A stretch of 63,661 bases of DNA, counting the filler, from Bacteroidales bacterium (lineage in GTDB: Bacteria; Bacteroidota; Bacteroidia; Bacteroidales; CAIWKO01), in the NCBI GenBank assembly GCA_035389045.1. It is 3 parts of 3 records of this genome, joined end to end, with 100 filler letters (N's around TTAATTAATTAA, not from the genome) between each part and the next. Parts side by side here need not be neighbours in the genome. Positions count along the whole stretch, not along the records: positions 1 to 26,346 come from DAOORA010000064.1; 2 more parts are not named here. The stretch is one strand, 5' to 3'. The notes beneath the pieces are model-generated. The model had not been told where the DNA came from. It was given only the letters and a program-made list of their open reading frames with translations, and did not search any database. The position numbers were made by a program, and so were the translations under genes. How positions within the stretch are numbered: position 1 is the stretch's first letter; the number at the start of each line of letters is the position of its first letter. This document shows, piece after piece, positions 4,789 to 20,653 of the stretch.

Positions 4789-4838
4789 AAGAGGCTTATG
4801 ACGGCAGCGTAAAGGTCGGGATTCAAGGTACGAATGTA

Positions 4839-5285
4839 TTATTGATCTGACTCCAAATTCATTTTGGTTTTAATATCCGGCCTTTCATCCTTCATGTGCT
4901 CGTACACCCACTTTTTATTTAATACATATCCTAATAATCCATTGGGTATGGCAATTATAGCAGAGGCCACATAAGCATTGACATGGATCAATGAGAATGC
5001 CCAGATAAAAAACATGCCCACACAATACGTGATGAAATATACTAATAAAAACCTGAATATTAATTTGTTGCTCCTGTTATTAAAAACAAGTATGCCATAG
5101 GTTTTAAAATTAAACAAAATTCCCAGTGTAGTCGAAATAGCACCCGCTATGGTATAATGCAGCCCGATCCACAAAAAGAAAGCCAGAATGCCGTAGCCGA
5201 ATATTGTATTCAACCCGGCAACCAGGAAAAACCTTATGATTTTAACACTTACAATGTTTTTAATAATTCTTTTTGTTTTTTCCAT
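4839..5285 (-). CDS. gtrA: GtrA-family polyprenyl-phosphate-sugar flippase
   Basis: Small 4-TM protein with IIRFFLVAGLNTIFGY...NF...LVF...RFLLVY...GYVLNKKWVY pattern. Confidence 0.85.
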   Translation of the reverse strand: MEKTKRIIKNIVSVKIIRFFLVAGLNTIFGYGILAFFLWIGLHYTIAGAISTTLGILFNFKTYGILVFNNRSNKLIFRFLLVYFITYCVGMFFIWAFSLIHVNAYVASAIIAIPNGLLGYVLNKKWVYEHMKDERPDIKTKMNLESDQ

Positions 5286-5396
5286 CTGTCGTTATTACCA
5301 TCGCCGTGAATAAACCGGGAAACTTATTGTAATAGACTCCTGAGAATCAGCAGGAATCCGAAACAAAACGCACAGCACGATCACCGATATAGATTT

Positions 5397-6332
5397 TTAT
5401 TCAAAATTGATCCGCTCTTTTTCGATGACCAACGGACGTTTCTTTACCTGTGTATAGATTGCACCGATATATTCGCCTATGATGCCGATAAAAAAAAGCT
5501 GCACTGAGGAAAAGAAAAACAAACCGATCACCAGGGGTGCCGTCCCGAGCTTAAATTCATTCCAGTAAATAAGTTTGTAGATCAAATAACCGATGGCAAC
5601 CAACAGACTGAAGATGGCAACGGTAAAACCGATGAAACTGGCCAGCCGCAGCGGCAGCTTTGAATGATTTACAAAGCCGAGCATACCGATATCATAAAGC
5701 GTATAGAAATTATTTTTGGTTTTTCCATGCAGTCGTTTCGGCTGGACATATTCTAACGAAGAGGTCTGAAATCCCACTTCGGATATCAGCCCTCTGAAAT
5801 AAGGATAAGGATCATCAATCCGGCGTATCACTTCGATAAATGAGCGGTCGTAAAGCCCGAAGCCCGTGAAATTCTTTATTTGTTCTCCTTCTGAAAATTT
5901 TTCAAGCATATTATAATACACTTTCCGCATCAGGAACATGACCGGGTTTTCCCTGGACTTTTTCTTTACGGCAGTGACGATTTTATACCCCTTCTCCCAT
6001 TTTTCCACAAAGGCAGGGATAACCTCCGGAGGGTCCTGCAGGTCGGCAGCCATAACGATCACACAGTCGCCGGTAACCTGGAGCAAACCATAGTAAGGCG
6101 AACGGATATGTCCGAAATTACGGACATTGACAATGATCCTGACATGTTTGTCCCGGGCAGCAATCCCTTTAAGTATCTCAACGGTTTTATCCTGAGAGTT
6201 GTTGTCGATGAAAACATGCTCGTAATCGTATCCCGGTAATCCGTCGAAAACCTTTTTTACCTCGTTGCACAGGATCTCAACATTTTCTTCTTCGTTGAAA
6301 CAGGGCGTCAGTACAGAAATCTTTTTGTTCAT
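5397..6332 (-). CDS. gtrB: GtrB/DPM-synthase-like GT2 polyprenyl-phosphate glycosyltransferase
   Basis: ISVLTPCFNEEEN, IDNNSQDKT, RNFGH, MAADLQDPP, two C-terminal TM helices, IGEYIGAIYTQVKKRP. Confidence 0.9.
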   Translation of the reverse strand: MNKKISVLTPCFNEEENVEILCNEVKKVFDGLPGYDYEHVFIDNNSQDKTVEILKGIAARDKHVRIIVNVRNFGHIRSPYYGLLQVTGDCVIVMAADLQDPPEVIPAFVEKWEKGYKIVTAVKKKSRENPVMFLMRKVYYNMLEKFSEGEQIKNFTGFGLYDRSFIEVIRRIDDPYPYFRGLISEVGFQTSSLEYVQPKRLHGKTKNNFYTLYDIGMLGFVNHSKLPLRLASFIGFTVAIFSLLVAIGYLIYKLIYWNEFKLGTAPLVIGLFFFSSVQLFFIGIIGEYIGAIYTQVKKRPLVIEKERINFE

Positions 6333-6339
6333 ATGGCAA

Positions 6340-7437
6340 TCACTTGTTTTTCTTGAGTTTTATGTTCTTATCAATCAGGTCTTCTTCCGTAAATACCTCA
6401 TTACAGGGTACAGGCAACTTTTTTCCATAAATTTTTTTGACCACATACTTGTCGATAAAATGCCTGTCCTCTGCAATAACGCAGGTATCTGAAAAGTTGC
6501 CGAAATATTTGATGTTCATTCCCCTTTGAATAATATCCTTTAGCGGTTCCTCAAACAAATTCCCGATAGAGGTATGAATATAGGGGCATGGCAGCACATC
6601 GCCGTATTGGGTGATGGAGATCATTCTTTTTACGGCAATACATCCTAAATTCAATCCATAGGACGGAGTGAGGTGTGTAAAAACGTTATATTTTTTTTCG
6701 AGTTCCCTCATATAATCCATATCATCGCGTGTAACCAGCGAATCGAAATTGCCTTCCCATGCGCCCACGGGTTTGGCGTAGGTAACAAACACCCCTACAT
6801 TTTTGTTGTTCAAAAACTCCAAAAACTCAATAAACTCCTGCGACCTGACTCTTTGTTTGGTAACAACGGTCTGAACGATCAGGCTCAACCCAGCATGAAA
6901 GGCTGCGTCGATGGCTTTCAACGCCCGGCTGTGCGACCCCCTGGCATTTCTGAAATCATCATGCTCTCCGGCTGATAAACTATCCAGGCTGAGCTGTATT
7001 TTGTCAACCCCGATCTTTTTTAAATGCAAGGCTTTTTTTTCGTCGAGAAACCATCCGTTGGTATCTGAAGTGATATAAAATTTCTGAGGATCAACAGCAG
7101 CGACCAGTTCGTCAAAATCTTTAAACACCAGTGGCTCCCCTCCGGTGATCACCAGGTGTGCCAGGCCCAGTTCGTCGGCCTGCCGCGACAAATCTTTCAC
7201 ATCGTCTATGGTAAACTTCCTGCCGCCTTTTTTTCCCTGAAAACCTTTGATGGAACAATGCTGACATACAAAATTACATGTATAATTGTACTGAAACTGA
7301 AGTATGGCAATGCTTTCGCCTCTTTTCACCTTATCGTCGTACTTCATAATTTTTTCATAGACGTAAGGCTTATTGAATTTTAGCTGATTTCTTTTTTCTT
7401 TTTCGCCGGCTTTCAGCGGATCATTTGTCAGTGACAT
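6340..7437 (-). CDS. Radical SAM protein with SPASM/twitch domain
   Basis: CNFVCQHC (CxxxCxxC), ITGGEPL, TNG, C-terminal GCIAVKRMISITQYGDVLPCPY...IGNL; start taken at MSLTND. Confidence 0.88.
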   Translation of the reverse strand: MSLTNDPLKAGEKEKRNQLKFNKPYVYEKIMKYDDKVKRGESIAILQFQYNYTCNFVCQHCSIKGFQGKKGGRKFTIDDVKDLSRQADELGLAHLVITGGEPLVFKDFDELVAAVDPQKFYITSDTNGWFLDEKKALHLKKIGVDKIQLSLDSLSAGEHDDFRNARGSHSRALKAIDAAFHAGLSLIVQTVVTKQRVRSQEFIEFLEFLNNKNVGVFVTYAKPVGAWEGNFDSLVTRDDMDYMRELEKKYNVFTHLTPSYGLNLGCIAVKRMISITQYGDVLPCPYIHTSIGNLFEEPLKDIIQRGMNIKYFGNFSDTCVIAEDRHFIDKYVVKKIYGKKLPVPCNEVFTEEDLIDKNIKLKKNK

Positions 7438-7447
7438 ATATGTATGT

Positions 7448-8584
7448 TTAGTTAATTTTTTCCAGGCCATAATCCCTCAGAATGGCGATGGCTATTTCTT
7501 TGCTGTATTTGTTCATCAAAAAACCCGCAATTTCATCCGAATAGGCAGCAGCCATTATAATTACGGCGTCCACCTTGTTTGCACGAAGCATCTCCGGTGC
7601 CACAATGGGGATATGCGAAGCGGGTGTATATTTGTTTTGTTTAAAAGGAGCCGAATCCACCACATATTTGATTTTTCCTGATAATCCGGCCAGGGATATC
7701 ACGGTAAGCGCCTGGTGCCCGGCCCCCCAAATGGCAACATCCTGATGGCGGCCGATAAATTCGAACAGTTCGTCTTTAAGTTTTGATTGGAATCCGGAAA
7801 AATCCGACATATCAACGGGGCGTCGTTTTCTGACCACGGCAGAGAGGATATAATCATGCCATACAGCCTTACATTCCAGTACCTGAAACCCATTAACGGC
7901 CAATAATGAAGACAGTGTTTCTGCTGTAAAATAAAACAGGTGGTCGCTGATGAATTCTGAGAACAGGTTTTTCCTGAGTATCATGTCGAAATTGGGCACC
8001 TCTATCAGCCCGACCGCATCATCGGTCAGGTTATGAGCAATTCCCCTCAGCGCCGTGTTAATATCCGGCATATGCTCAAGGAAACTCAAAATAAAAAAAG
8101 CATTAAAGGGTGCGTCTTGTAAAATAAACTTCTCAGCATCAATATAACCCTGCTGAACCTTCAGCCCTGATTCCTTACAGAGATTGACAGAAACCGGTGA
8201 ATATTCAATCCCGTAGGCCTGCGCAATAAATTTTTTCATCAGCGACAAGTACTCACCGCGCCCGCAACCGATTTCGATAATTTTCTTATTTTCAAGAGAA
8301 TACCGGTGGGCAAACTGCTCAAACTGGTGTAAACGGAATTGTTTCATTTCCTCCGAAAATGCTGCAGCGCGTATCACTTCCCGGTAATATGGCACCGGGT
8401 CGTTGCTGAGCTGGACAATGCCGCAGCCCGAGCACTGGCAGACTTCCAGGTCGATTCCTTTGTCGTTGCCCAGCGATGCAGCATCAGGAAAATTCTGGGC
8501 TGATTTAGGCATGTTCTCATACCTGAATAAAGGTGTTTCAAAAAACTCATGATGACAAACACGGCAATGATTAATGCGTTTCAC
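7448..8584 (-). CDS. NDP-sugar C-methyltransferase-like protein (Zn-binding N-terminus, SAM domain, C-methyltransferase C-terminal domain)
   Basis: CRVC...CSGCGIVQL, IEIGCGRG, LEHMPD, IEVPN, DHLFYF, WGAGHQ, VVDSAPFKQNKYTPASHIPIV. Confidence 0.82.
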   Translation of the reverse strand: MKRINHCRVCHHEFFETPLFRYENMPKSAQNFPDAASLGNDKGIDLEVCQCSGCGIVQLSNDPVPYYREVIRAAAFSEEMKQFRLHQFEQFAHRYSLENKKIIEIGCGRGEYLSLMKKFIAQAYGIEYSPVSVNLCKESGLKVQQGYIDAEKFILQDAPFNAFFILSFLEHMPDINTALRGIAHNLTDDAVGLIEVPNFDMILRKNLFSEFISDHLFYFTAETLSSLLAVNGFQVLECKAVWHDYILSAVVRKRRPVDMSDFSGFQSKLKDELFEFIGRHQDVAIWGAGHQALTVISLAGLSGKIKYVVDSAPFKQNKYTPASHIPIVAPEMLRANKVDAVIIMAAAYSDEIAGFLMNKYSKEIAIAILRDYGLEKIN

Positions 8585-8609
8585 TTTTTTAGCAACTTTT
8601 TTAGCAGAT

Positions 8610-10259
8610 TTATGAATTTAATGTAATATTAAAATAATCGAAATGTTTTTTCCAGAAATCATTTTTAGCTACTATTTCTTTTGCTGTTTTCATAAAATGT
8701 TCCGCCCGTTCAGGATCATCTAATTTCTCATAACATTTGGAGGTCATGTAATAGGCTAATGCGTGATTATTCTTTGCTCTTATTGCATTTTCAAAACCCT
8801 TTAAAGCAGTTTTATAATTACCCAAACGAAAATCACTATTTAAAACAAAATTCAATTCTAAATTAAGCAAATACGCTTTTTCCTGTATATATTCCGATGA
8901 AAAATCTTCGGTTTCCACTACGGCAAGCTTGTAATCGGACCGGTTAAAATTTGATTTTAAGTATTTCTTTTTTACACAAATATCGTACATTTCACTTCCA
9001 ACAAGCGGGTTGGCGCAAAAAATCAAATACCAGTTCGAGTCAATGGTTTTCAGAAAACTTCGGGTGACCTCAATATCTTCTTTTGTTTCCCCCGGAAGCC
9101 CAATAAGAATATTGGTGTTTGTGTATATTCCTAAATCCCTGCAATTATTGACAACATCCCGGACAATGTTTAAATTCAAAGGCTTATGCATGATTTCTTT
9201 TAAAACTCTTTCATTGCCCGATTCAACTGATAATAAAAGCTGATCGATCCCGGCATCTTTAAGCGTTTTAAGCATTTCCCTGTCCAAAGCATACAGTGCC
9301 AGGCCATTTTGAAAAACGACATTTATTTTTAATTCTTTTACAATTTCAATAATTTGATAAACCCTTTTTTTATCAGCCATTAAATGGTCATCCTGAAAAA
9401 CAAGAACTTTTGCATTATATTTTTCTTTTAGTTTAGTAAAATCTTCTTTAATCCGGTCAATACTAAAATATCTCATCTCCCGGCCATGTACGGTATAGGA
9501 AGAGCAAAAACAACATTTAAATGTACAGCCCCTCGATGTCATAACGTGGACATTATGGCTTTTTTGGCTGACGCCGGCATAAGCTGTAATTGCAGGGTTA
9601 AGACCATAGCTGTCCATGTCGCACAGATCATAATCATAAAAAGGAATCTCATCCAAATCAGTAATATAGCTGGGTGAAAATTGACAATTATTTTCAATTT
9701 TGTTTTTAGTTATCCAGGAAGAATGATTTTCCAACAACTCTTTTTTATGGTCTGCTTTGAGTAATTCTAAAAAAGGCAATTCTCCTTCTCCAAAACAAAG
9801 GGCATCGATGTCTGTTGTTTTGTCAAAAATCTGCCTGTACAAATTCGTCGGAATTCCACCTCCTGCCACGATAAGAGACTTTGGAAATATTTTTCTGCAA
9901 CTTGCAATGACATCAAACATCACCTCATAGGAAGGTGTAAATAAAACAGATATGCCAATTACAGACGGATTGTAATCGATATTTTCTTTTTGATTTAATT
10001 TTGAATAGACATAATCATAAAAAGAATTATACTCAAAACAACTTATGGTGTTGAGGTCAATATTAAAATCAATAAGCCTTGTTTCAACTTTGCAGTGTTT
10101 TTTAATAAAGGAGCTAATAGATAAGATTCCTATTGGCATATCGCTTAAGACACTGCCAAAATCCCTGCCTTCCCTTTTGATAACTCTGACATTATGGGGC
10201 GGATTAATGAAATCTTCAAAGGTTATGTGAGGGGGATCGATAAAAAGAACTTTTTCCAT
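8610..10259 (-). CDS. Cobalamin-binding (class B) radical SAM enzyme with C-terminal TPR-like helices
   Basis: PIGILSISS, VIGISV, VAGGGIPT, GEGE, TSRGCTFKCCFC, VESGNERVL, IGLPGETKED; more AT-rich than neighbours. Confidence 0.9.
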   Translation of the reverse strand: MEKVLFIDPPHITFEDFINPPHNVRVIKREGRDFGSVLSDMPIGILSISSFIKKHCKVETRLIDFNIDLNTISCFEYNSFYDYVYSKLNQKENIDYNPSVIGISVLFTPSYEVMFDVIASCRKIFPKSLIVAGGGIPTNLYRQIFDKTTDIDALCFGEGELPFLELLKADHKKELLENHSSWITKNKIENNCQFSPSYITDLDEIPFYDYDLCDMDSYGLNPAITAYAGVSQKSHNVHVMTSRGCTFKCCFCSSYTVHGREMRYFSIDRIKEDFTKLKEKYNAKVLVFQDDHLMADKKRVYQIIEIVKELKINVVFQNGLALYALDREMLKTLKDAGIDQLLLSVESGNERVLKEIMHKPLNLNIVRDVVNNCRDLGIYTNTNILIGLPGETKEDIEVTRSFLKTIDSNWYLIFCANPLVGSEMYDICVKKKYLKSNFNRSDYKLAVVETEDFSSEYIQEKAYLLNLELNFVLNSDFRLGNYKTALKGFENAIRAKNNHALAYYMTSKCYEKLDDPERAEHFMKTAKEIVAKNDFWKKHFDYFNITLNS

Positions 10260-10267
10260 TAACAAAT

Positions 10268-10765
10268 TTAAAAATAATTTCGATACATATCTTGCATCGG
10301 GATGAGATTTTCAGGACATTTTTCGTGCCATGCAAGAAAGCCGGCATCGTTAACGCTCAATCCCGTTGAGTTCAATACAAATTGTTCCGACAAAAAACAT
10401 TTAAATAACAAGGAAATAAAGTGGCCTCTTGTTCTACTTTCTGCTATAATAGTCTGACAAATAGCAACCGGACCGGGTTCAAATTCTACCGGTGTTCCTA
10501 TTTCGACTTTGGCAACCTCAATAATTCTGTTTTCAATAGTTTCCTTAAACCGGATAATACCGCCGGGGACATGCCAGCCGGTGCCGCAGTATGTGTCGTC
10601 TCTCCAGGATAGCAGTGTCCGGTTTCTTTCGTCTTTTATAAGCAGGTCAACATTAATCATCGGGGTAATCCCGCTGACAAACAAAAAAACATCTTCCGGC
10701 AAGCCATCACAGGGGTTGGAAATACCGTCATATATCACTTTTAAAGCATCGCTGATTTTCATCAT
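10268..10765 (-). CDS. NUDIX hydrolase, GDP-mannose mannosyl hydrolase (Gmm/WcaH)-like
   Basis: TPMINVDLLI...WHVPGGIIRFKETIENRI...EIG, HFISL. Confidence 0.75.
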   Translation of the reverse strand: MMKISDALKVIYDGISNPCDGLPEDVFLFVSGITPMINVDLLIKDERNRTLLSWRDDTYCGTGWHVPGGIIRFKETIENRIIEVAKVEIGTPVEFEPGPVAICQTIIAESRTRGHFISLLFKCFLSEQFVLNSTGLSVNDAGFLAWHEKCPENLIPMQDMYRNYF

Positions 10766-10766
10766 C

Positions 10767-11660
10767 TTAAAATGGTTGTTCCATAAAACCAATATCCTTA
10801 TCGATGATATGTTTGTTTAACACATACCATTCGTATAACATTTTTAAACCCACATCAAGGGGTGTAAATTCAAAGCTTTTCATTTCTTTCAGCAACAGCG
10901 TATTGTCACCGCTGTATTCTGTTCCAAGTCCATCTTTCTGAAAGGTAACGCTTAATTTTTTCCCGGATAGTTCCACAATTTTTCCGGCAATGGTTTTATA
11001 ATCAGTCACATTGCCCGAACAGACGTTATAAACTTTTTGCGACGGGGTATGTTCGGCAAACCATTCCACAATTTTCACCAGGTCGCCGGCGAACAAGAAA
11101 TCCGCAAATTTATTCTGACCGATGCGGACAGGCATGTTCATGACTACCTGACAACAGACATTCGGTATCAACCGGGTTTTCCAGTCATCATCGTGTCCGT
11201 ATACGCCAAAAAGCCTCAGGTTGTATATGTTGTTGTTCAGCAGGGTAAATTTTGTCATCAGGTATTTTGAAAAGCCGTACTGGTCGGCCGGGACAAAAGT
11301 ATCAAAGTAATTTTCCTTCATTCCGGGGATCCAGTTTTCGCGCCCGAATTCTGCCCCGCTGCCAAAATAGATCATCTTGCCGAAAAAACCACTGCATCTT
11401 GCAACATTGAAAAACATTTTCAGGTTGTTTTCCAGCACCATCATTGGATTTTTCACAGAATGGCGGGGGGCTGCATCGTAAGTGGCTGTGTGTATAACAA
11501 CATCAAAGCGGTGTTTTTTAATAAAATCCTCAACTTGTGATATGACCAGTAAGTCCAGTTCCTGCCGTGCGGGCGCCAGAACCTCGTATTTGCCCTGAAA
11601 CTCCCCGGCCAGATTTCGGGCAATAAAACCATTTCCACCGGTGATCAATAGTTTCATCAT
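10767..11660 (-). CDS. NAD-dependent epimerase/reductase (extended SDR), YerF-like position
   Basis: LLITGGNGFIA, GSGAEFG, YGFSK, LRLFGVYG; ATGA overlap with the upstream ThDP enzyme. Confidence 0.85.
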   Translation of the reverse strand: MMKLLITGGNGFIARNLAGEFQGKYEVLAPARQELDLLVISQVEDFIKKHRFDVVIHTATYDAAPRHSVKNPMMVLENNLKMFFNVARCSGFFGKMIYFGSGAEFGRENWIPGMKENYFDTFVPADQYGFSKYLMTKFTLLNNNIYNLRLFGVYGHDDDWKTRLIPNVCCQVVMNMPVRIGQNKFADFLFAGDLVKIVEWFAEHTPSQKVYNVCSGNVTDYKTIAGKIVELSGKKLSVTFQKDGLGTEYSGDNTLLLKEMKSFEFTPLDVGLKMLYEWYVLNKHIIDKDIGFMEQPF

Positions 11661-13465
11661 TTGTCTTCCAGTGGTTTTATGATCATATTCTGCCTGAATT
11701 CGTCCCTGTCGAGAAAAGGCCAAAGGTCTTCCAGCGGCCTCGAGATCATCCGTCCGTCTTCCGTTTTATAGCTCATCATCCGCGGCGCTGTAACCTGGTC
11801 GGGGTTGATCAGAAGCTCACACAATACCGGCCCGTTGTAATCCAGTATCTGCCGGATGTTTTCTTTTAATTCGGGGTTATTGGCGATCCGGAATGTTCTG
11901 ATCCCGTGTGCGTCGGCCACCCTGCAGAAATCCGGCAGTGTAAGGCCGCTGCCGGTGCTGCTGCCGGCGAATCGTCCTTCGAAGTAAGCTTTTTGTGTAA
12001 TGCGTATCGAGCCGTATCCTTTATTGTTCAACACAAATATTTTAACCGGAAGTTCAAGCCGTTTCAGGGTTTCCAGCTCCTGAATATTCATCACGAACCC
12101 GCCGTCGCCGTCAATGCATACGGTTCGTTTTTTTTCGCTTGCCAGGCAGCCGCCGATTGCGGCCGGTAAGCCAAATCCCATAGGCCCCAGCCCTTCGCTG
12201 TTGAACAGACGCATCCCTTTTTTGATCCTGAAAGCCTGCATAGTCCTTTCGCTGCATGCGCCCGAGCTGCCGGGAATAATAACATCATCAGCGGTCAGTT
12301 CATCCGACAGCAGATCAATGAGGTAATAATCATTTACAAAATCCTTTTGTTCTTTATATTCAGGCAATACCACGGGATACCGGGCTTTCCATTCCTTACA
12401 TCTGCCGATCCAATAGTTCCTGTCCTTATTTTCGACCAGTGCGATATTCTTTTGAAGTTCTTCGATAAATAATCCGGCATCTGCACAAACGGGCACATCA
12501 ATAAGAGTCATCATTTTATTGATTTCGTGCATATCGGCATCGACCATTATTTTTCGGGCTTCGCGGGCAAAATTCTTATGATTGTATCCTGTCTGGCCAA
12601 AATCGAGCCGCGCCCCGATGATCATAATGGAGTCAGCGTTTTGTTGTACGAAATTGGCGCCTCGTTGTCCGACACTGCCCGGGCGGCCAAAATACCACTC
12701 ATCATTTTCATCAAAAAAATCTATCGTTTTCCAGGTGGTAAGCACGGGTACCTGAAGTTTTTTTACAAGATCGAGAAACAGATGCTCTGCTTTTGCCAGC
12801 CTTATCCCGTTGCCCGCCAAAATCACCGGCCGTTCAGCATTATTAAGCAGTTCAATGGTTCTGGCCACTTGTTCTTTCAGGAGAACGATGTCAACTTTTT
12901 CTATCTGCTCCTCTTCAGAATAGCATTTTAATTTCGTTTCTTCGATACGTGCATCCTGGACATCTAAGGGGATATCAAGCCACGCCGGGCCCGGTCTGCC
13001 GCTTCTTGCCAGGTAAAGCGCCTTTTGCAGGTGGTATTTTACAGACTCAGGATCTGTAATGGTAACAGCATATTTTGTTATGGGCTTCACCATATCAACA
13101 ATGTTGATTTCCTGGAAACCCATCTGCCTCACCTTTCTGTTGCCGATCAGGTCATCCCTCTTCACCTGGCCCGAAAGGATAAGAACCGGTATCGAATCGA
13201 GCCATGCAGAAGCCACCCCGGTGATGGCATTGGTGGCTCCCGGCCCTGTGGTAACAAGCGCCACGCCAATATCATTGGTATACTGTGCGTATGCTTCAGC
13301 GGCGACGGCACAGGCCTGTTCATGCAGGTTTACCGTATATTCAATGGCAGGATGCTTACCCAGTGAATCTACCAGATGCATACATCCTCCGCCGGGAAGC
13401 ATGAACACGTGATTTACACCCGCACCTGCCAGATAGTCGAAAACAAAATCAGATAATTTTTGCAT
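11657..13465 (-). CDS. ThDP-dependent acetolactate-synthase-like carboligase (YerE-like, branched-chain sugar)
   Basis: HEQACAVAAEAYA, VTTGPGATNAITGV, RSGRPGPAWLDIPLDVQ, GDGG...NNKGYGSIR ThDP motif; lies inside a CDP-dideoxyhexose cluster. Confidence 0.85.
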   Translation of the reverse strand: MQKLSDFVFDYLAGAGVNHVFMLPGGGCMHLVDSLGKHPAIEYTVNLHEQACAVAAEAYAQYTNDIGVALVTTGPGATNAITGVASAWLDSIPVLILSGQVKRDDLIGNRKVRQMGFQEINIVDMVKPITKYAVTITDPESVKYHLQKALYLARSGRPGPAWLDIPLDVQDARIEETKLKCYSEEEQIEKVDIVLLKEQVARTIELLNNAERPVILAGNGIRLAKAEHLFLDLVKKLQVPVLTTWKTIDFFDENDEWYFGRPGSVGQRGANFVQQNADSIMIIGARLDFGQTGYNHKNFAREARKIMVDADMHEINKMMTLIDVPVCADAGLFIEELQKNIALVENKDRNYWIGRCKEWKARYPVVLPEYKEQKDFVNDYYLIDLLSDELTADDVIIPGSSGACSERTMQAFRIKKGMRLFNSEGLGPMGFGLPAAIGGCLASEKKRTVCIDGDGGFVMNIQELETLKRLELPVKIFVLNNKGYGSIRITQKAYFEGRFAGSSTGSGLTLPDFCRVADAHGIRTFRIANNPELKENIRQILDYNGPVLCELLINPDQVTAPRMMSYKTEDGRMISRPLEDLWPFLDRDEFRQNMIIKPLEDK

Positions 13466-13466
13466 T

Positions 13467-14042
13467 TTAAACTATAATTTTCTTGAGAAAATCAACTACG
13501 CTTTCCGATGAATTGCTGTTCCACGGTTGAGGGAACAATAATGTCCTTATTCCGTCTTTTTTTGCATCATTGATATGGCTCTCATTATCGTCGATGAAAA
13601 TATCCACATTGCCGAGTGTGCGTAAAAATCCGGCTTTATTAGCATCATAGCATGGAAAATCATCATGGGTGCGTTTTGACGGAACAAAGTGATAGGTCCT
13701 GATCCAGTCACCAAAGTGTTTAAAAACCCATTGTGCTGAACAGGGTGCATAAAAACGCGGTGTGGCCGTTAATACCGCATGACGGAACTGATGGCCATGC
13801 GCCCTGAACCATTCCAGGACATCCATATCCGGCTGAAGCGACTCCCCGTGCTTTATCCTGAACTCATCAAGCGTTTCGAGATATTTTTCGCGGGAAATGT
13901 GAAAGATCTCATGAGGTGGTATCTTATCAATCTGAGCAAACAGCACCATACAAGCGGGGTTGTTCTTCAGCCAGTAACCTTCAAACCAGTCGCGGGTCAG
14001 GTTATTCAACACATCATCAACATCCCAGATTATTGTCTGCAT
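13467..14042 (-). CDS. HAD-superfamily phosphatase, 5'(3')-deoxyribonucleotidase-like
   Basis: IIWDVDDVL motif I, LTAT motif II, NK, IFIDDN motif IV, LLFPQPWN. Confidence 0.8.
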   Translation of the reverse strand: MQTIIWDVDDVLNNLTRDWFEGYWLKNNPACMVLFAQIDKIPPHEIFHISREKYLETLDEFRIKHGESLQPDMDVLEWFRAHGHQFRHAVLTATPRFYAPCSAQWVFKHFGDWIRTYHFVPSKRTHDDFPCYDANKAGFLRTLGNVDIFIDDNESHINDAKKDGIRTLLFPQPWNSNSSESVVDFLKKIIV

Positions 14043-14047
14043 TTTTA

Positions 14048-15565
14048 TTATATGATTGATTTCAGCCACAGGGTGATCTCTGTCTTCCGGTTTTTGTTGC
14101 GGGTAATGGTTTCATCGGTATAATACGAATCGTCTTTATAATGCGTTGAAGAAATTTCTTCGATGATAACACCTGTCTGTGTAAACATTTTATGCTTTAC
14201 TCCCCGCTCAATCACAATGATATCGCCGCTTTTTAACGACCTGGCCACTCCGTCGAGCGTCAGTTCAAGGGTCCCGTACATGATGTGGAAGGTTTCTTCT
14301 TTTTGCTTATGGTATTGCTCAGGATGTGTCTGCCCGGGTAAAAGGATAATGAGTTTTTTGCAGTATTCACGGTTGATAAAATTAATAATGGTGGTACCTG
14401 CCTCATAATACTTGTCTATCCCGTAATGATGCGAGATTTCAAAATCCACTTTATCGGGGACGGAAACCCTGCTTTCAATTATATACTTGCTGACATCTGT
14501 GGTAATAGCGAGCACTTTTTCTCTAAGCTCCATTTTTTTGGTATCTGTAAACAGTATCGCTTCATTTTTCCTGATGTCTTTCAGCAGCCGGAATTCGGTG
14601 TATTTTGAAAAATCATTGGCCGTTATTTGCCCTTCACCGACCGGAATGGCAAAAAACACATCTTCCGTTTCAATTTTTTCTCCATTTTTCAGGTCGTGGC
14701 GTGCAAAAACTCCCCGTCTCAATCCACGGAGGTCGTCCGTTTCTTTTTGCGAAAAGGTATGCCTTTCATCATGATCGCCGCAATACTCAAAAGCTTCTCC
14801 GGCAGCTTTCAGCCATTTGTAAACCTGTTCGGGTTTTGCCGAATAGGCATTCAGCTTATATTGCTCGGTTTCAAGGCCGACATGTTTTTCAAATATCCGC
14901 GCCCCTTTTGCCACCGCTAACTTAATGGAAGTCAGTTCGTCCGGACCTTCATGCGTAGAATATCCAATAGTATGACCGGGGTACCTTTTTCTGAACAGGT
15001 CAATTTGATTCAGGTTAGAATTTTTCGCCGGGGTTGGATATTCTGCAATACAGTGCATCAATGCGAGACTTTTATCCCGGTGTTCAAAAAAGCTGACCAC
15101 CCGGTCGATATTGAATAATTCGACTCCCGCTGTGGATGCAATCAACGGCAGGCGTGTTTTGGAAATTCTTTCGAGCAAAGGCCAGTCGGTGAATGAGCAG
15201 CTTGCTATTTTCAAAAAATCATAACCATGTTCTTCGACCAGGTCCACAGAGGCTTCGTCGAAAGGGGTGCATACCGCCAGGAATCCTTTTTCTTTGATGT
15301 GATCTTTGATTTTCCTGAAATCGTCGGGATTAAGACGTGTTTCCGCAAAACGTTTAATGTATTTTATATCTTTCCGTGTTTGAAAATCCGGATGTATAAA
15401 TGTATCCAGCTGCCTGTACTGCAACTTGAATGCAAAATCAAAACTGAACTCATTAATTATTGCCGCAATTTCATCAATAATTTTACATCCATGTCCGGCA
15501 TCGCCCATGTGATTATTGGCAAGTTCAAATACAAACAATGGTTTATCGCCTGTTTTCATGTTCAT
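14048..15565 (-). CDS. NeuB/SpsE-family PEP-dependent synthase with SAF domain fused to a D-lyxose-isomerase-like cupin
   Basis: ELANNHMGD, KLQ, TPFD, KIAS, LMHCIAEYPT, GYSTHE, FEKHV; SAF LRRGVFARHDLKNGE; cupin NREYCKKLIILLPGQTHPEQYHKQKEETF. Confidence 0.85.
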   Translation of the reverse strand: MNMKTGDKPLFVFELANNHMGDAGHGCKIIDEIAAIINEFSFDFAFKLQYRQLDTFIHPDFQTRKDIKYIKRFAETRLNPDDFRKIKDHIKEKGFLAVCTPFDEASVDLVEEHGYDFLKIASCSFTDWPLLERISKTRLPLIASTAGVELFNIDRVVSFFEHRDKSLALMHCIAEYPTPAKNSNLNQIDLFRKRYPGHTIGYSTHEGPDELTSIKLAVAKGARIFEKHVGLETEQYKLNAYSAKPEQVYKWLKAAGEAFEYCGDHDERHTFSQKETDDLRGLRRGVFARHDLKNGEKIETEDVFFAIPVGEGQITANDFSKYTEFRLLKDIRKNEAILFTDTKKMELREKVLAITTDVSKYIIESRVSVPDKVDFEISHHYGIDKYYEAGTTIINFINREYCKKLIILLPGQTHPEQYHKQKEETFHIMYGTLELTLDGVARSLKSGDIIVIERGVKHKMFTQTGVIIEEISSTHYKDDSYYTDETITRNKNRKTEITLWLKSII

Positions 15566-15620
15566 CAAATTTGTTGTTTCGAAAATTCAATCTGCTGGTT
15601 TAGATTAACGATATCTTTTT

Positions 15621-15628: not shown

Positions 15629-15655
15629 CACAAAGTATTTCAATATTTGTCCACT

Positions 15656-16969
15656 TTACAGTCCATTGACAAAGTCATCCAGGATGCCTTCGGCATAATC
15701 AAACATTTCTCTTGACAAACCGGGATATGTCCCCAAAAAGAACGTATTGTTCATAATGGTTTCCGTATTCAGCAGGTGATCGGCAACACGCCATGATTTA
15801 TCAGCAAAAGCGGGCTGTTTTATGATGTTTCCTGCAAAAAGGTTGCGGGTTTCGATTAATTTCTCATTCAGCAATGTGGTTAAGGTGTCACGCGTGAAAG
15901 GGGCTTTATCCTTTATTGTCACAATAAAGGCAAACCACGCAGGATCAGCCCCCTCAGTGGCTTCGGGCAAAATAAAGTAATCAGGATATTTTGCAAAGAT
16001 ACGGGTCCACTCCCGGAAATTCTTTTTACGTTTTTCGCAGAAATCAGGGAGTTTGTCTATTTGTGCGGCCCCTATAGCGGCCTGTATGTCGGTCATTTTT
16101 AAATTATAACCGATCTCCGAATACACGTATTTATGGTCGTATCCCGAAGGCAGTTGCCCGAACTGTCGTGAAAAACGGCTACCACAGGTGTTGTTATCGC
16201 CCCCGGCACAGTAACAGTCGCGTCCCCAATCGCGGAAAGCGCGAATTATCTTTGCCAATTGCGGATCGTTAGTGCATACGGCTCCTCCTTCGCCGGTGGT
16301 GATGTGGTGTGCCGGATAAAAAGAAAGCGTTGAAATATGCCCGAAAGTTCCGGTGAATCCGGATTTGTATTTACTGCCAAAGGCATCGCAGTTGTCTTCA
16401 ATAACCCATAAATTATGCTTATGGGCTAGTCCCATAACAGCATCGACATTAAACGGATTCCCGAGGGTATGGGCAATGAAAATGCATCGGGTACGTGGAG
16501 TGATGGCTCTGCGCATCATGTCAGCGTCAATGTTATACCCGGGAATTTCCACATCAACGAATACCGGTACTAGTCCATTTTGAATGATGGGGGTCACTGT
16601 AGACGGGAAACCTGCTGCAACGGTGATCACCTCGTCACCGGGGATCATCTTACGGTTGCCCAGTTTCCTGGACATAAGAGCGGATAAAGCCAGCAGGTTG
16701 GCTGAAGAACCCGAATTGACGAGTAAGATGTGTTTTATTTTTAAAAACTCCGAAATTTTAGCGGTAAATTGTTCTGAAAAACGGCCCTCGGTGAGCCAGA
16801 AATCAAGCGAGGCCTCCACAGCATTGATGAGTTCGCATTCATCAAAAACCCGGCCGGCATAGTTTATCAGGGTTTTTCCCGGGATAAATTCTTTCTGTTC
16901 AAAATACGCACGATAATATTCCGCTGTTTTTTCCAGAATTTCTTTCCGTAGTTGTTTATGATCAGACAT
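15656..16969 (-). CDS. rfbH: CDP-4-keto-6-deoxy-D-glucose 3-dehydratase (E1, RfbH/DdhC)
   Basis: DFWLTEGRF, NSGSSANL, AAGFPSTV, AHTLGNPF, EDNCDA, SFYPAHHITTGEGG (His in place of the PLP Lys), RDWGRDCYC...NTC Fe-S Cys, YDHKY. Confidence 0.93.
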   Translation of the reverse strand: MSDHKQLRKEILEKTAEYYRAYFEQKEFIPGKTLINYAGRVFDECELINAVEASLDFWLTEGRFSEQFTAKISEFLKIKHILLVNSGSSANLLALSALMSRKLGNRKMIPGDEVITVAAGFPSTVTPIIQNGLVPVFVDVEIPGYNIDADMMRRAITPRTRCIFIAHTLGNPFNVDAVMGLAHKHNLWVIEDNCDAFGSKYKSGFTGTFGHISTLSFYPAHHITTGEGGAVCTNDPQLAKIIRAFRDWGRDCYCAGGDNNTCGSRFSRQFGQLPSGYDHKYVYSEIGYNLKMTDIQAAIGAAQIDKLPDFCEKRKKNFREWTRIFAKYPDYFILPEATEGADPAWFAFIVTIKDKAPFTRDTLTTLLNEKLIETRNLFAGNIIKQPAFADKSWRVADHLLNTETIMNNTFFLGTYPGLSREMFDYAEGILDDFVNGL

Positions 16970-16998
16970 AACAATATTTTTAAGCATGATGGGACATT

Positions 16999-18087
16999 TT
17001 ACAACAGATGGTTGTAATATTCCGAAATCTGGGCTTCAGTAACTTTTTGTATGTTTTGACCTGAAAGATAAGCTTTGTTCCAATCGACAATGTTCCGAAG
17101 TGCTGTTTCTATATCCCACTGCGGTTGCCATCCCAATTCGTTTTTTGCCTTGGAGCAGTCTAATTTCAGGTATGTGGCCTCATGCGGCCCGGTATTTTTA
17201 TCCATCCGGAATGAAGCGTCTTTGCCCCAATAGCTGCACAATGCAGTAATGATCCATTCCACACTTCTTGCATCCTTGTCTTCCGGGCCGAAATTCCAGG
17301 CTTCCGCATATTTAACACCATCAGCATATAGTTTTTCAGCCAGTTTCAGGTACCCCGACAAAGGTTCAAGGACGTGCTGCCATGGTCGTATGGCGGCGGG
17401 ATTGCGTACCGTGAGTTTTTTTCCTTTGGAAACGGCTTTAACAAAGTCAGGGATCAGGCGGTCTTCGGCCCAGTCGCCCCCGCCGATAACATTGCCAGCC
17501 CGTGCCGATGCAACAGCCACACCATGCTTACTGTACTCTTCCGCATTAAAAAAAGAACTCCTGAACGCCGACGTGACCAGTTCCGAACAGGCTTTGCTGT
17601 TGGAATAGGGATCGTAGCCCCCCATGGGTTCGTATTCCCTGTATCCCCAGAGCCATTCATGGTTTTCGTAACATTTATCGGTGGTGACATTGATCACGGC
17701 TTTTATACCGGGAACATGCCGCACGGCTTCCAGCACATTCACCGTCCCCATCACATTGGTGGAATAGGTTTGCACCGGGTCGTGATATGACCTGAGCACC
17801 AGCGCCTGGGCAGCCATATGGATGATGATTTCGGGCTTTACCTTTTTGATCGTTGCCAGCACTTTTTCATAATCCCTGATATCACCGATATATGAGGTGA
17901 TACATTCATGGATCCGGGCATCCGCAAATAAGCTCGGGTTTGTAGGCGGTTCAAGGGCATAACCATACACATCGGCGCCCAGTCTTTTGAGCAGCAGGCA
18001 GAGCCATGAACCTTTAAACCCGGTGTGTCCGGTAATTAAAACCTTTTTGCCGACCCAGAAATTTTCAGTTTGTATTTTTTTTACCAT
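16999..18087 (-). CDS. rfbG: CDP-glucose 4,6-dehydratase
   Basis: LITGHTGFKGSWL, HMAAQALV, TTDKCYEN, DPYSNSK, RAGNVIGGGDW, RPWQHVLEPL. Confidence 0.96.
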   Translation of the reverse strand: MVKKIQTENFWVGKKVLITGHTGFKGSWLCLLLKRLGADVYGYALEPPTNPSLFADARIHECITSYIGDIRDYEKVLATIKKVKPEIIIHMAAQALVLRSYHDPVQTYSTNVMGTVNVLEAVRHVPGIKAVINVTTDKCYENHEWLWGYREYEPMGGYDPYSNSKACSELVTSAFRSSFFNAEEYSKHGVAVASARAGNVIGGGDWAEDRLIPDFVKAVSKGKKLTVRNPAAIRPWQHVLEPLSGYLKLAEKLYADGVKYAEAWNFGPEDKDARSVEWIITALCSYWGKDASFRMDKNTGPHEATYLKLDCSKAKNELGWQPQWDIETALRNIVDWNKAYLSGQNIQKVTEAQISEYYNHLL

Positions 18088-18857
18088 AATTTCCACTCAC
18101 ATTTGTCTGACGACCATATTTTTTCTAAATCTTCTTTATCACGGATGGTATCCATAGGCCTCCAGAAGCCATAATGCTTGTACGCATACAATTGAGCCTC
18201 TCTGGCCAGAGCCTCCAGCGGTTCTCTTTCCCAGATCGTGGAATCGTCCCTGATGTAGTCAAAAACTTCGGGCTGAAGAACAAAAAATCCGGCATTGATC
18301 CATGCATTATCCCCTTTGGGCTTTTCCTGAAATGCAAAGATCTCCACAGAATTTTCATCATTGAAATGAATGGCTCCAAACCGTCCGGTGGGCTGCGTGA
18401 CAGTGACGGTGGCCAGTTTTTTTTGCGAATGATGAAAATCAACCAGTTCTTTGATATTCACATTACCCACCCCATCACCGTATGTCAGCATAAATGGTTC
18501 ACTGCCGATATATTCCTGCACTCTTTTTATTCTGCCCCCGGTCATGGTATCCATTCCGGTATCAATCAGGGTGATCTTCCAGGGTTCCGCATTTGACTGG
18601 TGAATATCAATTTTGTTTTTTTGCAGGTCAATAGTAACATCGGCCTGATGCAGGAAATAGTTGGCAAAATATTCCTTAATCAAGAATCCTTTATACCCAC
18701 AGCAGACGATAAATTCATTGTAGCCATAATGAGAATATATTTTCATTATGTGCCAGAGTATGGGTTTTCCGCCTATTTCGACCATGGGTTTAGGTTTCAG
18801 GCCCGTTTCTTCGCTTAATCGGGTTCCCAGCCCTCCTGCTAAAATAATTACTTTCAT
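18081..18857 (-). CDS. rfbF: Glucose-1-phosphate cytidylyltransferase
   Basis: ILAGGLGTRLSEET..KPKPMVEIGGKPILWHIMK, TMTGGRIKR, LTYGDG, INAGFF, GFWRPMDT. Confidence 0.96.
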   Translation of the reverse strand: MKVIILAGGLGTRLSEETGLKPKPMVEIGGKPILWHIMKIYSHYGYNEFIVCCGYKGFLIKEYFANYFLHQADVTIDLQKNKIDIHQSNAEPWKITLIDTGMDTMTGGRIKRVQEYIGSEPFMLTYGDGVGNVNIKELVDFHHSQKKLATVTVTQPTGRFGAIHFNDENSVEIFAFQEKPKGDNAWINAGFFVLQPEVFDYIRDDSTIWEREPLEALAREAQLYAYKHYGFWRPMDTIRDKEDLEKIWSSDKCEWKLW

Positions 18858-19045
18858 AAATATTTTTTCAATAGTGTTATTAACAAGATGTTTTCATTAA
18901 CAAATGTATTGATTTTGTTGGTTAATTTAAATAAAATTTTCACTACTGTCCGACAAATAATATTTTATTACAATGCCATTTACAATATCCGCCACGGCTG
19001 ATTGTGCGGCAAGAGGGGATGGTTTAACAATAGAAAAAGAAGGTT

Positions 19046-20653
19046 TTATTTGTTTGCAGAATTGTTTGTTATTTTCCAGACGGAAATAATACGGCTGTTA
19101 TAGGCCTTTATATTAAAAACTTCTTTGACATTGAAATTGCCCTGGAAGGTATAATCTTCTGGATGAACGCGGTAATTACTGACAAAATAATCAGGATTAT
19201 CGGTTCCTTTTTGTAAAAAAGTTATTCGTTCTCTGTCTTCAGGCCGGAGAATGTCAAGCGTGAAAAGGCCGGGAGGTATATTATAATAGACGACTACATG
19301 TTTGCGGTCATCGGTTTTTAATATGTACTCATATGCTTCTTTAAATGAAGTTCCCCAATAATCCAGTTCATAGTTTTTCCGAAGGCCTTCGCGCTTATTC
19401 TTTAACTTATAAACGACATCATTGAAATAAATCCCTTCGTAAGGGTGCAATCTGATCATCTGAGAAGCAATGAAACAAAATGTCACTCCGAGTGCTGCAA
19501 TTAAAACTTTTCCGAGCTTTCCCCTGATCCTTTGCCAGAGTTCATGTACCCCGTATGCCGCAATCAATACCAGGCCTCCGTAAACAAAAAAGACCTGCCG
19601 CCAATCATCGTATACCACTGATTTCATTATAACTATGATGGCTAAAGGCGAAATGAAGCATAAGAAAAAGAAAAAGGGGATCATAAAGTTTTTATCATTA
19701 AGCACACGCCATCCGTTGCGGAATATCTTAATCACCAGAAATACCACACCGGCTAAAGTCAGAAGCCAATACACAAGAGGTATGGTGATGATCATCCACC
19801 AGAGAATATGATACCAGGGCAGTTCATTGGATATATAAAATTTCCCCATAAACAGCACTGATCCGCGCCACCAGAAACTGGACATGGTAGAAAAGGAAGA
19901 TGCAAGTTTTCCGAACGGATCGTGCCACAAGATCGGCCATGTAATATATAAAACTAGAAAAGTGGTCGTCAGCAATAATAAAAACTGGATGGCTGTTTTT
20001 TTTGGCGACTCTTTTTTTATGTTAAACAGAAAGTCAATTATCCTGAAAATGGTGAAAAAAAACGGTAACATCAGCCCCATGATGCGAATATTAATCGTCA
20101 GGGCATATATTGCCCCAAGAATAATATAATCTTTATATTTATTGGAATACAGGGTTTTAATGGAAAAATAAATCGAAATAACCACCATGGAAAGAAAGGG
20201 CATATCCTTGGGGTTAAAAAAGGAATGGGCATATATACGCGGATTGAGCAAATAGATCAGTAAGGCGATGATGCCCAACCATTCGTTTTTCCAAACCTTT
20301 ACAACCAGCTTATACAGGAAAAAACCGGATAAAAGAAATAATAAATGATTGATCAGATGCCTGGATATCATAACATCACGGATATCGCTTATTATGCCGG
20401 TTTTTTCAAAGCCTATGCAGAGCCATTCAAAAAACACTCCGTAGCCACTCATACCCTTTGTATAAATGGATAGGTCGTGATGAAAAACGTAATCAAAATT
20501 CAACAGGCCATATTCCCGGTGAATTTTTTCGTCCCAACCCAAGCCGTAATCATTGCATACGATGATTCCAACAACCAGGAAAATAAAAAGCAGCACATAT
20601 ACGGCATTCTCTTTTACCTTAGGATTAATCGAAAATGGCTTTTGTTTTCGCAT
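19046..20653 (-). CDS. GT-C fold multi-TM glycosyltransferase (ArnT/PMT-like, polyprenyl-phosphate-sugar donor)
   Basis: DYGLGWDE first-loop motif, many TM segments, HSFFNPKD, YDDWRQ, periplasmic tail with YELDYWG. Confidence 0.78.
   Translation of the reverse strand: MRKQKPFSINPKVKENAVYVLLFIFLVVGIIVCNDYGLGWDEKIHREYGLLNFDYVFHHDLSIYTKGMSGYGVFFEWLCIGFEKTGIISDIRDVMISRHLINHLLFLLSGFFLYKLVVKVWKNEWLGIIALLIYLLNPRIYAHSFFNPKDMPFLSMVVISIYFSIKTLYSNKYKDYIILGAIYALTINIRIMGLMLPFFFTIFRIIDFLFNIKKESPKKTAIQFLLLLTTTFLVLYITWPILWHDPFGKLASSFSTMSSFWWRGSVLFMGKFYISNELPWYHILWWMIITIPLVYWLLTLAGVVFLVIKIFRNGWRVLNDKNFMIPFFFFLCFISPLAIIVIMKSVVYDDWRQVFFVYGGLVLIAAYGVHELWQRIRGKLGKVLIAALGVTFCFIASQMIRLHPYEGIYFNDVVYKLKNKREGLRKNYELDYWGTSFKEAYEYILKTDDRKHVVVYYNIPPGLFTLDILRPEDRERITFLQKGTDNPDYFVSNYRVHPEDYTFQGNFNVKEVFNIKAYNSRIISVWKITNNSANK

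Follow-up and report, generated by a model that had tools for sequence, protein, structure and literature searches.

The question raised by this locus is which sugar a compact run of Bacteroidales genes builds and how that sugar leaves the cytoplasm. The run comprises 14 genes between positions 4839 and 20653 of a 63,661-nucleotide stretch of DNA (the window) from Bacteroidales bacterium assembly GCA_035389045.1, a 4.46-Mb draft genome that is 96.3% complete. Only positions 1-26346 are the contig of the locus (C64); positions 26347-63661 are N or lie off contig C64, so the whole stretch lacks continuity as one DNA piece. The gene content indicates that the operon probably makes one long-branched 3,6-dideoxyhexose, which would be delivered across the membrane on polyprenyl phosphate. 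Family memberships, folds and conserved gene order are observations, from which every substrate and reaction below is inferred.

The listing of open reading frames (ORFs) contains 14 in a row, all on the minus strand and occupying 20653 to 4839; neighbors overlap by as many as 67 bases or stand up to 188 bases apart. Pfam and NCBIfam scans directly matched 12 of the 14 family labels given in the initial annotation, the HAD and NUDIX proteins being without a Pfam match, and the HAD protein was recognized through its motifs and fold; the description of 14 co-oriented genes with named families is borne out in this way. In line with that annotation, which had seen no wzx, wzy or wzm and no chain-building cytoplasmic glycosyltransferase, no wzx, wzy, wzm or extra glycosyltransferase was found among the scanned ORFs of positions 1-26346. 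Seven of the genes concern the making and branching of the sugar, one being an enzyme dependent on thiamine diphosphate (ThDP) and another a short-chain dehydrogenase/reductase (SDR):

18081..18857, minus strand: RfbF, glucose-1-phosphate cytidylyltransferase (TIGR02623 equivalog, 427.9 bits against a cut-off of 300.25)
16999..18096, minus strand: RfbG, CDP-glucose 4,6-dehydratase (TIGR02622 equivalog, 514 bits against a cut-off of 278.45)
15656..16987, minus strand: RfbH (E1), CDP-4-keto-6-deoxyglucose 3-dehydrase (NF011936, 673.8 bits against a cut-off of 423)
14048..15568, minus strand: NeuB-family ulosonic acid synthase (residues ~1-345) fused to a D-lyxose/D-mannose-isomerase-type cupin (~345-506) (Pfam NeuB and Cupin_2)
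13467..14069, minus strand: predicted HAD-superfamily phosphatase, 200 amino acids (aligned motifs, model and Foldseek; no Pfam match)
11657..13465, minus strand: putative YerE-like ThDP-dependent carboligase (Pfam TPP_enzyme_N, M and C; PDB match JanthE 8rph)
10767..11723, minus strand: epimerase-type SDR (Pfam Epimerase, residues 26-235)

RfbF, RfbG and RfbH all score above their equivalog cut-offs, and RfbH carries the Cys pattern C200-x57-C258-x-C260-x7-C268, which we take to be the E1 iron-sulfur cluster motif. Acting in succession, these enzymes would convert glucose-1-phosphate to CDP-4-keto-3,6-dideoxyglucose, the sugar to which a branch could then be added at C4.

The ThDP enzyme has an intact ThDP-binding motif (GDG-x26-NN at residue 453). 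Its best PDB match in a sequence search is 8rph (E 6.5e-126), which PMC12188165 describes as JanthE, a YerE-like enzyme that accepts ketones. Plant, yeast and bacterial acetolactate synthase depositions matched at E 1e-75 or weaker. The second match, 5ahk (E 1.7e-85), was deposited as "acetolactate synthase II", and we take it to be the YerE homologue PpYerE. All NCBIfam acetolactate synthase models stayed below their cut-offs (TIGR00118, 413 bits against 538). In addition, ilvC was not found in the genome by a search that detected it in all 14 control genomes, and at E ≤ 1e-10 the genome contained no second paralogue of the ThDP enzyme. The rfbF, rfbG and rfbH genes stand in the same operon as the ThDP gene, likewise in most related loci. 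With JanthE as best match, every synthase model below cut-off and ilvC missing, the sequence data assign the enzyme to the YerE-like group rather than to plain acetolactate synthases, in agreement with the initial annotation.

Which acid this enzyme uses as donor can be approached through its neighbors elsewhere. We scanned one genome per species and obtained 101 confirmed relatives of the ThDP enzyme, kept the best 80 loci with up to 10 kb on each side, and searched these using as queries both the 14 window proteins and proteins drawn from the loci (loci are cited by L numbers). Next to the ThDP gene stands a single keto-acid maker in 73 of the 80 loci, and none has two, which divides the loci as follows:

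Class A: NeuB-cupin beside the ThDP gene; 27 loci; ThDP enzyme 55-94% identical to that of the window
Class B: HMGL-like aldolase beside the ThDP gene; 34 loci; ThDP enzyme 49-52% identical to that of the window
Class C: NeuB fused to a xylose-isomerase-like TIM barrel; 12 loci; ThDP enzyme 47-48.5% identical to that of the window
No class assigned: 7 loci

Three of the seven class-less loci end at a contig end, two carry a weaker NeuB-like protein (L057, 30%; L073, 34%), and L075 and L077 have none. Classes B and C form fully supported clades in a tree built from 76 ThDP rows, with B nested in a class A grade. The type of keto-acid maker follows this tree, with 5 label changes compared to a shuffled mean of 34.6 and none of 200 shuffles reaching 5, a test that overstates independence because related sequences share labels and that does not address independent events. 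Class B has the arrangement of the published "unifying scheme", in which an aldolase provides a 4-hydroxy-2-oxo acid, ErwE, MMAR_2332 or MyGE joins this acid to CDP-4-keto-3,6-dideoxyglucose, and then a reductase acts (PMC9306805). ErwE, which is found with an aldolase, rejects pyruvate (PMC9306805).

The initial annotation had expected the genes of the cluster to recur together in other genomes, and they do: RfbH lies beside the ThDP enzyme in 19 of 27 class A, 20 of 34 class B and 12 of 12 class C loci, many of the loci without RfbH being cut short, and GtrB-like genes occur in 31 of the 80. A homologue of the HAD protein is encoded directly upstream of the ThDP enzyme in 25/80 loci, and the order NeuB-cupin, HAD, ThDP is kept in 23 of the 27 class A loci. 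Judged by record titles and tree labels, class A extends over at least 13 bacterial phyla (Bacteroidota, Ignavibacteriota, Nitrospirota, Cyanobacteriota, Melainabacteria, Verrucomicrobiota, Planctomycetota, Kiritimatiellota, Chloroflexota, Thermodesulfobacteriota, Acidobacteriota, Pseudomonadota and Bacillota) and one Altiarchaeota bin. The closest relative found, L002, comes from a Bacteroidales metagenome bin and is 92% identical at the DNA level.

NeuB enzymes condense phosphoenolpyruvate (PEP) with an aldose, and their product, a 3-deoxy-2-ulosonic acid, is likewise a 4-hydroxy-2-oxo acid. Since this is the kind of acid that an aldolase supplies in the other arrangement, the NeuB-cupin occupies the donor-supplier place of the other classes. 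The NeuB part of the window protein is not a close relative of the enzymes for which the family is named: its top PDB match is the uncharacterised 3g8r (E 1e-116), true NeuB/PseI proteins matching only at E 1e-19 to 1e-24, and the NeuB and PseI equivalog cut-offs were not reached (TIGR03569, 136 against 399.65 bits; TIGR03586, 119.6 against 340.25), which leaves the NeuB Pfam family (137.6 bits) as the sole NeuB-type family that was. In the family alignment, the NeuB active-site motifs are invariant, and so are cupin residues H415, H420, E424/E425 and H459, the His and Glu residues presumably being metal ligands. A model of the cupin domain built with 25 sequences reached a predicted local distance difference test (pLDDT) score of 92.7, and its top 10 Foldseek matches were all D-lyxose isomerases (TM-score 0.62-0.74, aligned over 167-200 columns), so that the modeled domain has the D-lyxose/D-mannose isomerase fold; Pfam Lyx_isomer is also matched by some members of the NeuB-cupin family. 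The fused family is large, with at least 7943 clusters at E ≤ 1e-20 among 8000 candidates scored, all under generic names only, and the fusion is rare in the host phylum (5 of 400 other genomes sampled). No member of the CMP-transferase family was found in the window or in 10 scanned NeuB-cupin loci.

The small protein encoded at 13467..14069 probably begins at the ATG at ORF residue 10. Across 26 aligned sequences the HAD motifs DxDxV, K and DD are invariant and T is nearly so (D7, D9, T92, K136 and D151/D152). Its AlphaFold2 model (pLDDT 95.1) gave 240 PDB matches at E ≤ 1e-3 in Foldseek, with HAD hydrolases leading; against the PDB, the single sequence had no match and a profile only weak ones. 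The model thus identifies the protein as a predicted HAD phosphatase that is private to this cluster type. Locus L022 lacks this HAD protein and has an unrelated HAD_2 gene directly after the ThDP gene, a substitution which suggests that phosphatase activity itself may be what is needed.

From these components a route to the branch can be proposed. The HAD phosphatase, the isomerase cupin and the NeuB domain would together turn a common ketose phosphate and PEP into a free 3-deoxy-2-ulosonic acid resembling 3-deoxy-D-manno-octulosonic acid (KDO) or ketodeoxynononic acid (KDN), with 8 carbons if the aldose is lyxose or 9 if it is mannose, the latter being KDN. D-lyxose isomerases act on free sugars, and for this reason the phosphatase possibly works ahead of the isomerase; it could equally work last, as in KDO and KDN synthesis, and the product would be the same either way. 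The ThDP enzyme, judged by its family and by the conserved gene order, would then decarboxylate the ulosonic acid and add the acyl anion so formed, of 7 or 8 carbons, to the C4 ketone of the CDP-sugar, yielding a 13- or 14-carbon sugar. The branch is more likely a long polyhydroxy chain derived from the NeuB-cupin/HAD pair, for which the initial annotation had proposed no function, than a 2-carbon chain of the yersiniose type. Of the initial proposal of one tailored C4-branched sugar attached outside the cytoplasm, the general outline is supported, and a 2-carbon yersiniose-type branch has become improbable.

The SDR is proposed to reduce the new branch ketone in a YerF-like role. Its true start is probably ~20 codons inside the ORF, and an SDR homologue directly follows the ThDP gene in L002, L005 and L007, as it does here. 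Four further genes, two of them for radical S-adenosylmethionine (SAM) enzymes, may tailor the sugar:

10268..10792, minus strand: Nudix-fold protein, a GDP-mannose mannosyl hydrolase relative (NF011963 E 3e-8, below cut-off; PDB 2gt4 E 2.3e-5)
8610..10265, minus strand: B12-binding radical SAM enzyme with a TPR tail (Pfam B12-binding and Radical_SAM)
7448..8584, minus strand: SAM-dependent sugar C-methyltransferase of the Methyltransf_14/13 type (Pfam PF08484, E 1.8e-16)
6340..7470, minus strand: radical SAM/SPASM enzyme (Pfam Radical_SAM and SPASM)

The distribution of these genes is that of accessory components, as far as the sequences of related loci tell. Homologues of the C-methyltransferase, 52-89% identical, occur in L002, L016, L020, L028 and L029; a C-methyltransferase of this family needs a neighboring ketone. 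The SPASM enzyme has homologues with 51-96% identity in 8 loci, and in the PDB it is best matched by nothing beyond MoaA and BlsE. The B12 radical SAM enzyme is a probable methyltransferase whose only clear homologue in the 80 loci is in L018 (51% identical). L002 is without the B12 gene, ~234 bases (L002:9016-9250) replacing positions 8518-10405, which include the end of the Nudix gene, and the B12 gene region was found letter for letter in a DNA run of another study. The NUDIX label of the initial annotation stands as a distant kinship to GDP-mannose mannosyl hydrolase and nothing closer, the NCBIfam match being below cut-off. A core role for the Nudix-fold protein in freeing the sugar for NeuB was considered and rejected, because the gene is present in only 7 of the 80 loci and travels with the SPASM enzyme, the two occurring together in 6.

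The remaining three genes are candidates for delivery of the finished sugar:

5397..6332, minus strand: GtrB-like polyprenyl-phosphate glycosyltransferase, GT2 with two C-terminal transmembrane segments (PDB 5ekp; hydropathy)
4839..5285, minus strand: GtrA-family small membrane protein, putative flippase or partner (PF04138 GtrA_DPMS_TM, 46.5 bits against 26.1; 4 transmembrane-like segments)
19046..20653, minus strand: putative GT-C-type polytopic membrane glycosyltransferase, 535 amino acids (Pfam PMT_2, 35.9 bits against 26.1; 8 transmembrane-like segments)

The GtrB-like protein matches Synechocystis GtrB (5ekp) over its full length (E 5e-48) and ArnC at E 3e-32. The GtrB-like genes of the related loci (43-96% identity) are found in 10 of 27 class A, 19 of 34 class B and 1 of 12 class C loci and in L057. 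The genome also has five GtrB-like paralogues, whose identity is no higher than 26-33% and which a tree sets apart on a branch with 99% support; this points to a dedicated GtrB orthologous group that travels with the branched-sugar genes. A GtrA gene follows the GtrB-like gene here and in L002, L005, L007, L013, L029 and L043. Beside this pair stands a polytopic protein whose family differs between loci: PMT_2 in L005, no recognized family in L007, L029, L057 and L002, and YfhO in L039, where the protein has 1521 amino acids. A variable third component of this sort matches the pattern of known three-component systems. The GT-C protein of the window, which had no sequence match in the PDB, is proposed from its sequence to be a periplasmic transferase. 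Searching the 80 loci by tblastn with the GT-C and GtrA proteins of the window gave matches in 1 and 3, respectively, and because Pfam finds GtrA in more loci, the absences in this search carry no weight. On the strength of these families, the GtrB-like enzyme would transfer the sugar from CDP to polyprenyl phosphate, GtrA would aid its crossing of the membrane, and GT-C would attach it to a periplasmic acceptor.

PMT_2 genes often stand in tandem in this genome (C23:23313-40868, with at least 7 on C23; C5:10309-14735; C35:32680-35544; loci L092-L099), and one PMT_2 protein examined, of 641 amino acids, combines the PMT_2 domain with a C-terminal TPR domain. With only 6 GtrB-like genes against 31 PMT_2 matches in the genome, a small number of lipid-linked donors may serve many transferases.

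Two metatranscriptome libraries from sludge-type samples contain short contigs that are identical to the window and cover parts of at least nine cluster genes and of fbaA; the cluster genes partly covered are those for GtrB, B12 radical SAM, SDR, ThDP/HAD, NeuB, RfbH, RfbG/F and GT-C. These contigs fit transcription of the cluster, with strand and level not readable from them, and the cluster parts without such contigs provide no evidence of silence.

Several observations weigh against a long-branched sugar that is made here and exported on a lipid carrier. RfbH-type E1 enzymes need an E3 reductase in the Yersinia and Salmonella pathways, and the Yersinia cluster encodes one, DdhD, whereas a Pfam scan found no E3 reductase of the RfbI/DdhD/AscD type in the cluster described here. 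Fer2, FAD_binding_6 and NAD_binding_1 were likewise missing from the scanned ORFs of 15 related loci, and the three NAD_binding_1 genes of the genome all lie on other contigs. The initial annotation's description of the system as self-contained is thus not fully borne out: its sugar pathway and delivery genes do stand together, but the cluster does not include the E3 reductase for RfbH. That lyxose isomerases act on free sugars allows more than one position for the phosphatase step and more than one aldose. On the delivery side, GT-C is the least conserved part: the 92%-identical L002 does not have this gene in common with the window, and the window protein is only 25% identical to the GT-C protein of L005; of the 31 PMT_2 matches in the genome, 26 are above cut-off. 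Given this lack of conservation and this abundance, the link of GT-C to the cluster rests on adjacency and co-orientation. Since L018 and L010 pair the same core with cytoplasmic GT4/GT2 enzymes, carrier-mediated delivery is one option among several, and we know of no polyprenyl-phosphate glycosyltransferase that uses a CDP-sugar. Finally, DNA carry-over is possible in the RNA libraries.

The most serious alternative is that the ThDP enzyme adds a 2-carbon branch from pyruvate, as in yersiniose, and that the NeuB-cupin/HAD pair makes a separate ulosonic acid, which enzymes encoded elsewhere add to this glycan or a different one. NeuB enzymes normally feed CMP-activated nonulosonic acids, which favors such a division, but the CMP-transferase family was not seen in the window or in the 10 loci scanned for it. 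Enzyme precedent is divided as well. Pyruvate is the preferred donor of YpYerE and one of several accepted by the promiscuous JanthE, the solved enzyme nearest to that of the window (PMC12247030, PMC12188165), so that a short branch could still be formed; ErwE, the enzyme associated with an aldolase, does not accept pyruvate at all (PMC9306805). A pyruvate-derived branch is also made unlikely by the gene neighborhood: NeuB-cupin, HMGL aldolase and NeuB-TIM interchange beside the ThDP gene and never occur together, which fits a donor-supplier role, and the NeuB-cupin, HAD, ThDP order recurs in many phyla. It is very improbable that the modules are unrelated altogether, with RfbFGH and the SDR making an abequose- or paratose-like sugar, the ThDP enzyme being of the acetolactate synthase type and NeuB making a sialic-acid-like sugar. 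CDP-abequose and CDP-paratose synthases are SDRs of this type, and the top NCBIfam names for the ThDP enzyme are indeed acetolactate synthase models, but each of these models falls short of its cut-off in a genome without ilvC, and the enzyme is nearer to YerE-like enzymes and is linked to RfbFGH and a keto-acid maker across phyla.

A different objection concerns only the carrier. The GtrB-like GT2 could move the branched sugar from CDP directly onto a glycolipid or lipid-linked glycan at the cytoplasmic face, in which case GT-C would be unrelated to the cluster. The same alternative is raised for the glycosyltransferases of mycobacterial lipooligosaccharide clusters that resemble dolichol-phosphate mannose (DPM) synthase (PMC4403928), and it would accommodate both the poor conservation of GT-C in a genome with so many PMT_2 matches and the ordinary GT4/GT2 enzymes beside the core in some loci. 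The match to GtrB and ArnC over the whole length, C-terminal membrane segments included, together with the GtrA gene that follows here and in six other loci and the polytopic protein beside the pair in six loci, makes direct transfer rather improbable. We favor the reading in which a long-branched sugar is built by this operon and carried across the membrane on polyprenyl phosphate. A more demanding joint claim, namely that the ulosonic acid of the NeuB-cupin/HAD pair is not CMP-activated but serves as donor to a YerE-like enzyme for a 13- or 14-carbon C4-branched 3,6-dideoxyhexose in at least 13 phyla, and that this sugar would be the first CDP-sugar on a GtrB-type carrier, is one that we put forward tentatively.

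Individual loci of the three classes show features of their own. The class B loci (L039:6210-19356 and 33 others) come from gut and rumen Clostridia and combine the HMGL-like aldolase with a YerE-like enzyme in 34 of 34 cases; gut Lachnospiraceae and Oscillospiraceae may often carry acyl-branched sugars. Class C (L080:5426-7594, L043:6818-8737 and 10 more) is found in Pseudomonas, Halopseudomonas, Stutzerimonas, Burkholderiales and Solirubrobacteraceae, with a GHMP kinase, a second nucleotidyltransferase, a GFO-type oxidoreductase and the YerE-like enzyme as neighbors, and looks like an independent fusion of NeuB with an isomerase-like domain. In the cultured species Vallitalea maricola (L022:4131-20907), two flagellin genes and a gene for a GT2-TPR protein immediately precede the NeuB-cupin/ThDP core, an arrangement suggestive of a flagellin glycan. 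The Altiarchaeota bin (L013, 9954 bases) encodes NeuB-cupin, ThDP, GtrB-like, GtrA and SPASM proteins 44-62% identical to those of the window, an archaeal occurrence that could reflect horizontal transfer or a binning error. In a Smithellaceae locus (L020:13006-19248), the core is followed by a second nucleotidyltransferase, a GDP-mannose-dehydratase-like protein, a Nudix protein, E1-dehydrogenase subunits and split transketolase genes, and these additions may constitute a second ThDP-dependent branching system in that cluster.

The genes that flank the cluster within positions 1-26346 are fbaA, atpD, ribF and genes for a TPR protein, a type IX secretion system (T9SS) cargo protein, an FN3 protein and an LRR protein. 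A T9SS cargo protein with a CHU_C or Por_Secre_tail domain adjoins the delivery end of the cluster both here (1559-3442, plus strand) and in L005 (18250-21621, minus strand); its presence in both Bacteroidales loci may be coincidence or a hint at the acceptor. The T9SS domains are also in keeping with a host from Bacteroidota. Homology with L002 ends at both edges of the block from RfbF to GtrB, which means that the two strains have different GT-C and GtrA genes. A promoter scan of positions 3400-22300 gave 60 candidates compared to 48.2 in shuffled sequence, and a terminator scan 17 compared to 18.9; as neither differs from shuffled sequence, these counts are uninformative on operon boundaries. 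No tRNA gene was found on the contig or on L002, so nothing points to an island inserted at a tRNA site.

The kind of system described here, YerE-type branching combined with three-component delivery, is already known. Like the erwiniose (ErwE/F/I/J), caryophyllose (MMAR_2331-2333) and gastriose (MygE/F/I) pathways that Steitz et al. 2022 brought together in their "unifying scheme" (PMC9306805), the cluster has genes for CDP-4-keto-3,6-dideoxyglucose, a YerE-like ThDP enzyme, a reductase and an adjoining maker of a 4-hydroxy-2-oxo acid, and the caryophyllose cluster likewise has a DPM-synthase-like GT2 (PMC4403928). Unlike those pathways, its donor maker is a PEP-dependent NeuB-family synthase with an isomerase and a private HAD phosphatase rather than a pyruvate aldolase, a difference that predicts a longer, fully hydroxylated branch of 7 or 8 carbons; it also has radical SAM, B12 radical SAM and Nudix-fold extras and a Bacteroidales host. 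The yersiniose A pathway of Yersinia pseudotuberculosis (DdhA-D, YerE and YerF) shares the route to the acceptor sugar, C4 branching by a ThDP enzyme and subsequent reduction, but YerE uses pyruvate to form a 2-carbon branch and yersiniose enters O-antigen through ordinary glycosyltransferases.

The delivery genes resemble the GtrA/GtrB/GtrC system of phages, ArnC/ArnT and CsbB/YfhO in combining a polyprenyl-phosphate GT2, a GtrA-family protein and a putative GT-C-type polytopic transferase, with the first two parts conserved here and the third variable. They differ from the Gtr and Arn systems in that a CDP-linked higher-carbon sugar is presumed to be the donor, in place of UDP-glucose or UDP-4-deoxy-4-formamido-L-arabinose (UDP-Ara4FN), and in that the sugar pathway is encoded in the same operon. 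With sialic acid, KDN and KDO synthesis (NeuB/PseI/LegI) the cluster shares a NeuB TIM-barrel synthase with conserved active-site residues and a HAD phosphatase partner, but it has a fused isomerase cupin and no CMP-transferase nearby, and its product is proposed to undergo decarboxylation by a ThDP enzyme rather than activation. In the literature searched, the NeuB-isomerase/HAD donor module, its breadth and the predicted sugar size are undescribed; Krug et al. 2024, who mined more than 200 YerE-like clusters according to PMC12247030, may already list such clusters.

Branched sugars of more than 8 carbons are known from only a handful of bacteria (PMC9306805, PMC12247030), and their structures are hard to find through chemistry alone. 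If the reading given here is true, the NeuB-cupin/HAD/ThDP triad would be a sequence marker for such sugars among many uncultured lineages, cyanobacteria and at least one cultured species of Bacillota. Sialic-acid-type synthases would gain a new use and ThDP carboligases, which are sought as catalysts for making tertiary alcohols, a new class of donor, and the GtrB/GtrA/GT-C delivery route would extend to a CDP-sugar. Given its occurrence in at least 13 phyla and an archaeal bin, the triad would then mark an unrecognised, widespread class of higher-carbon surface sugars.

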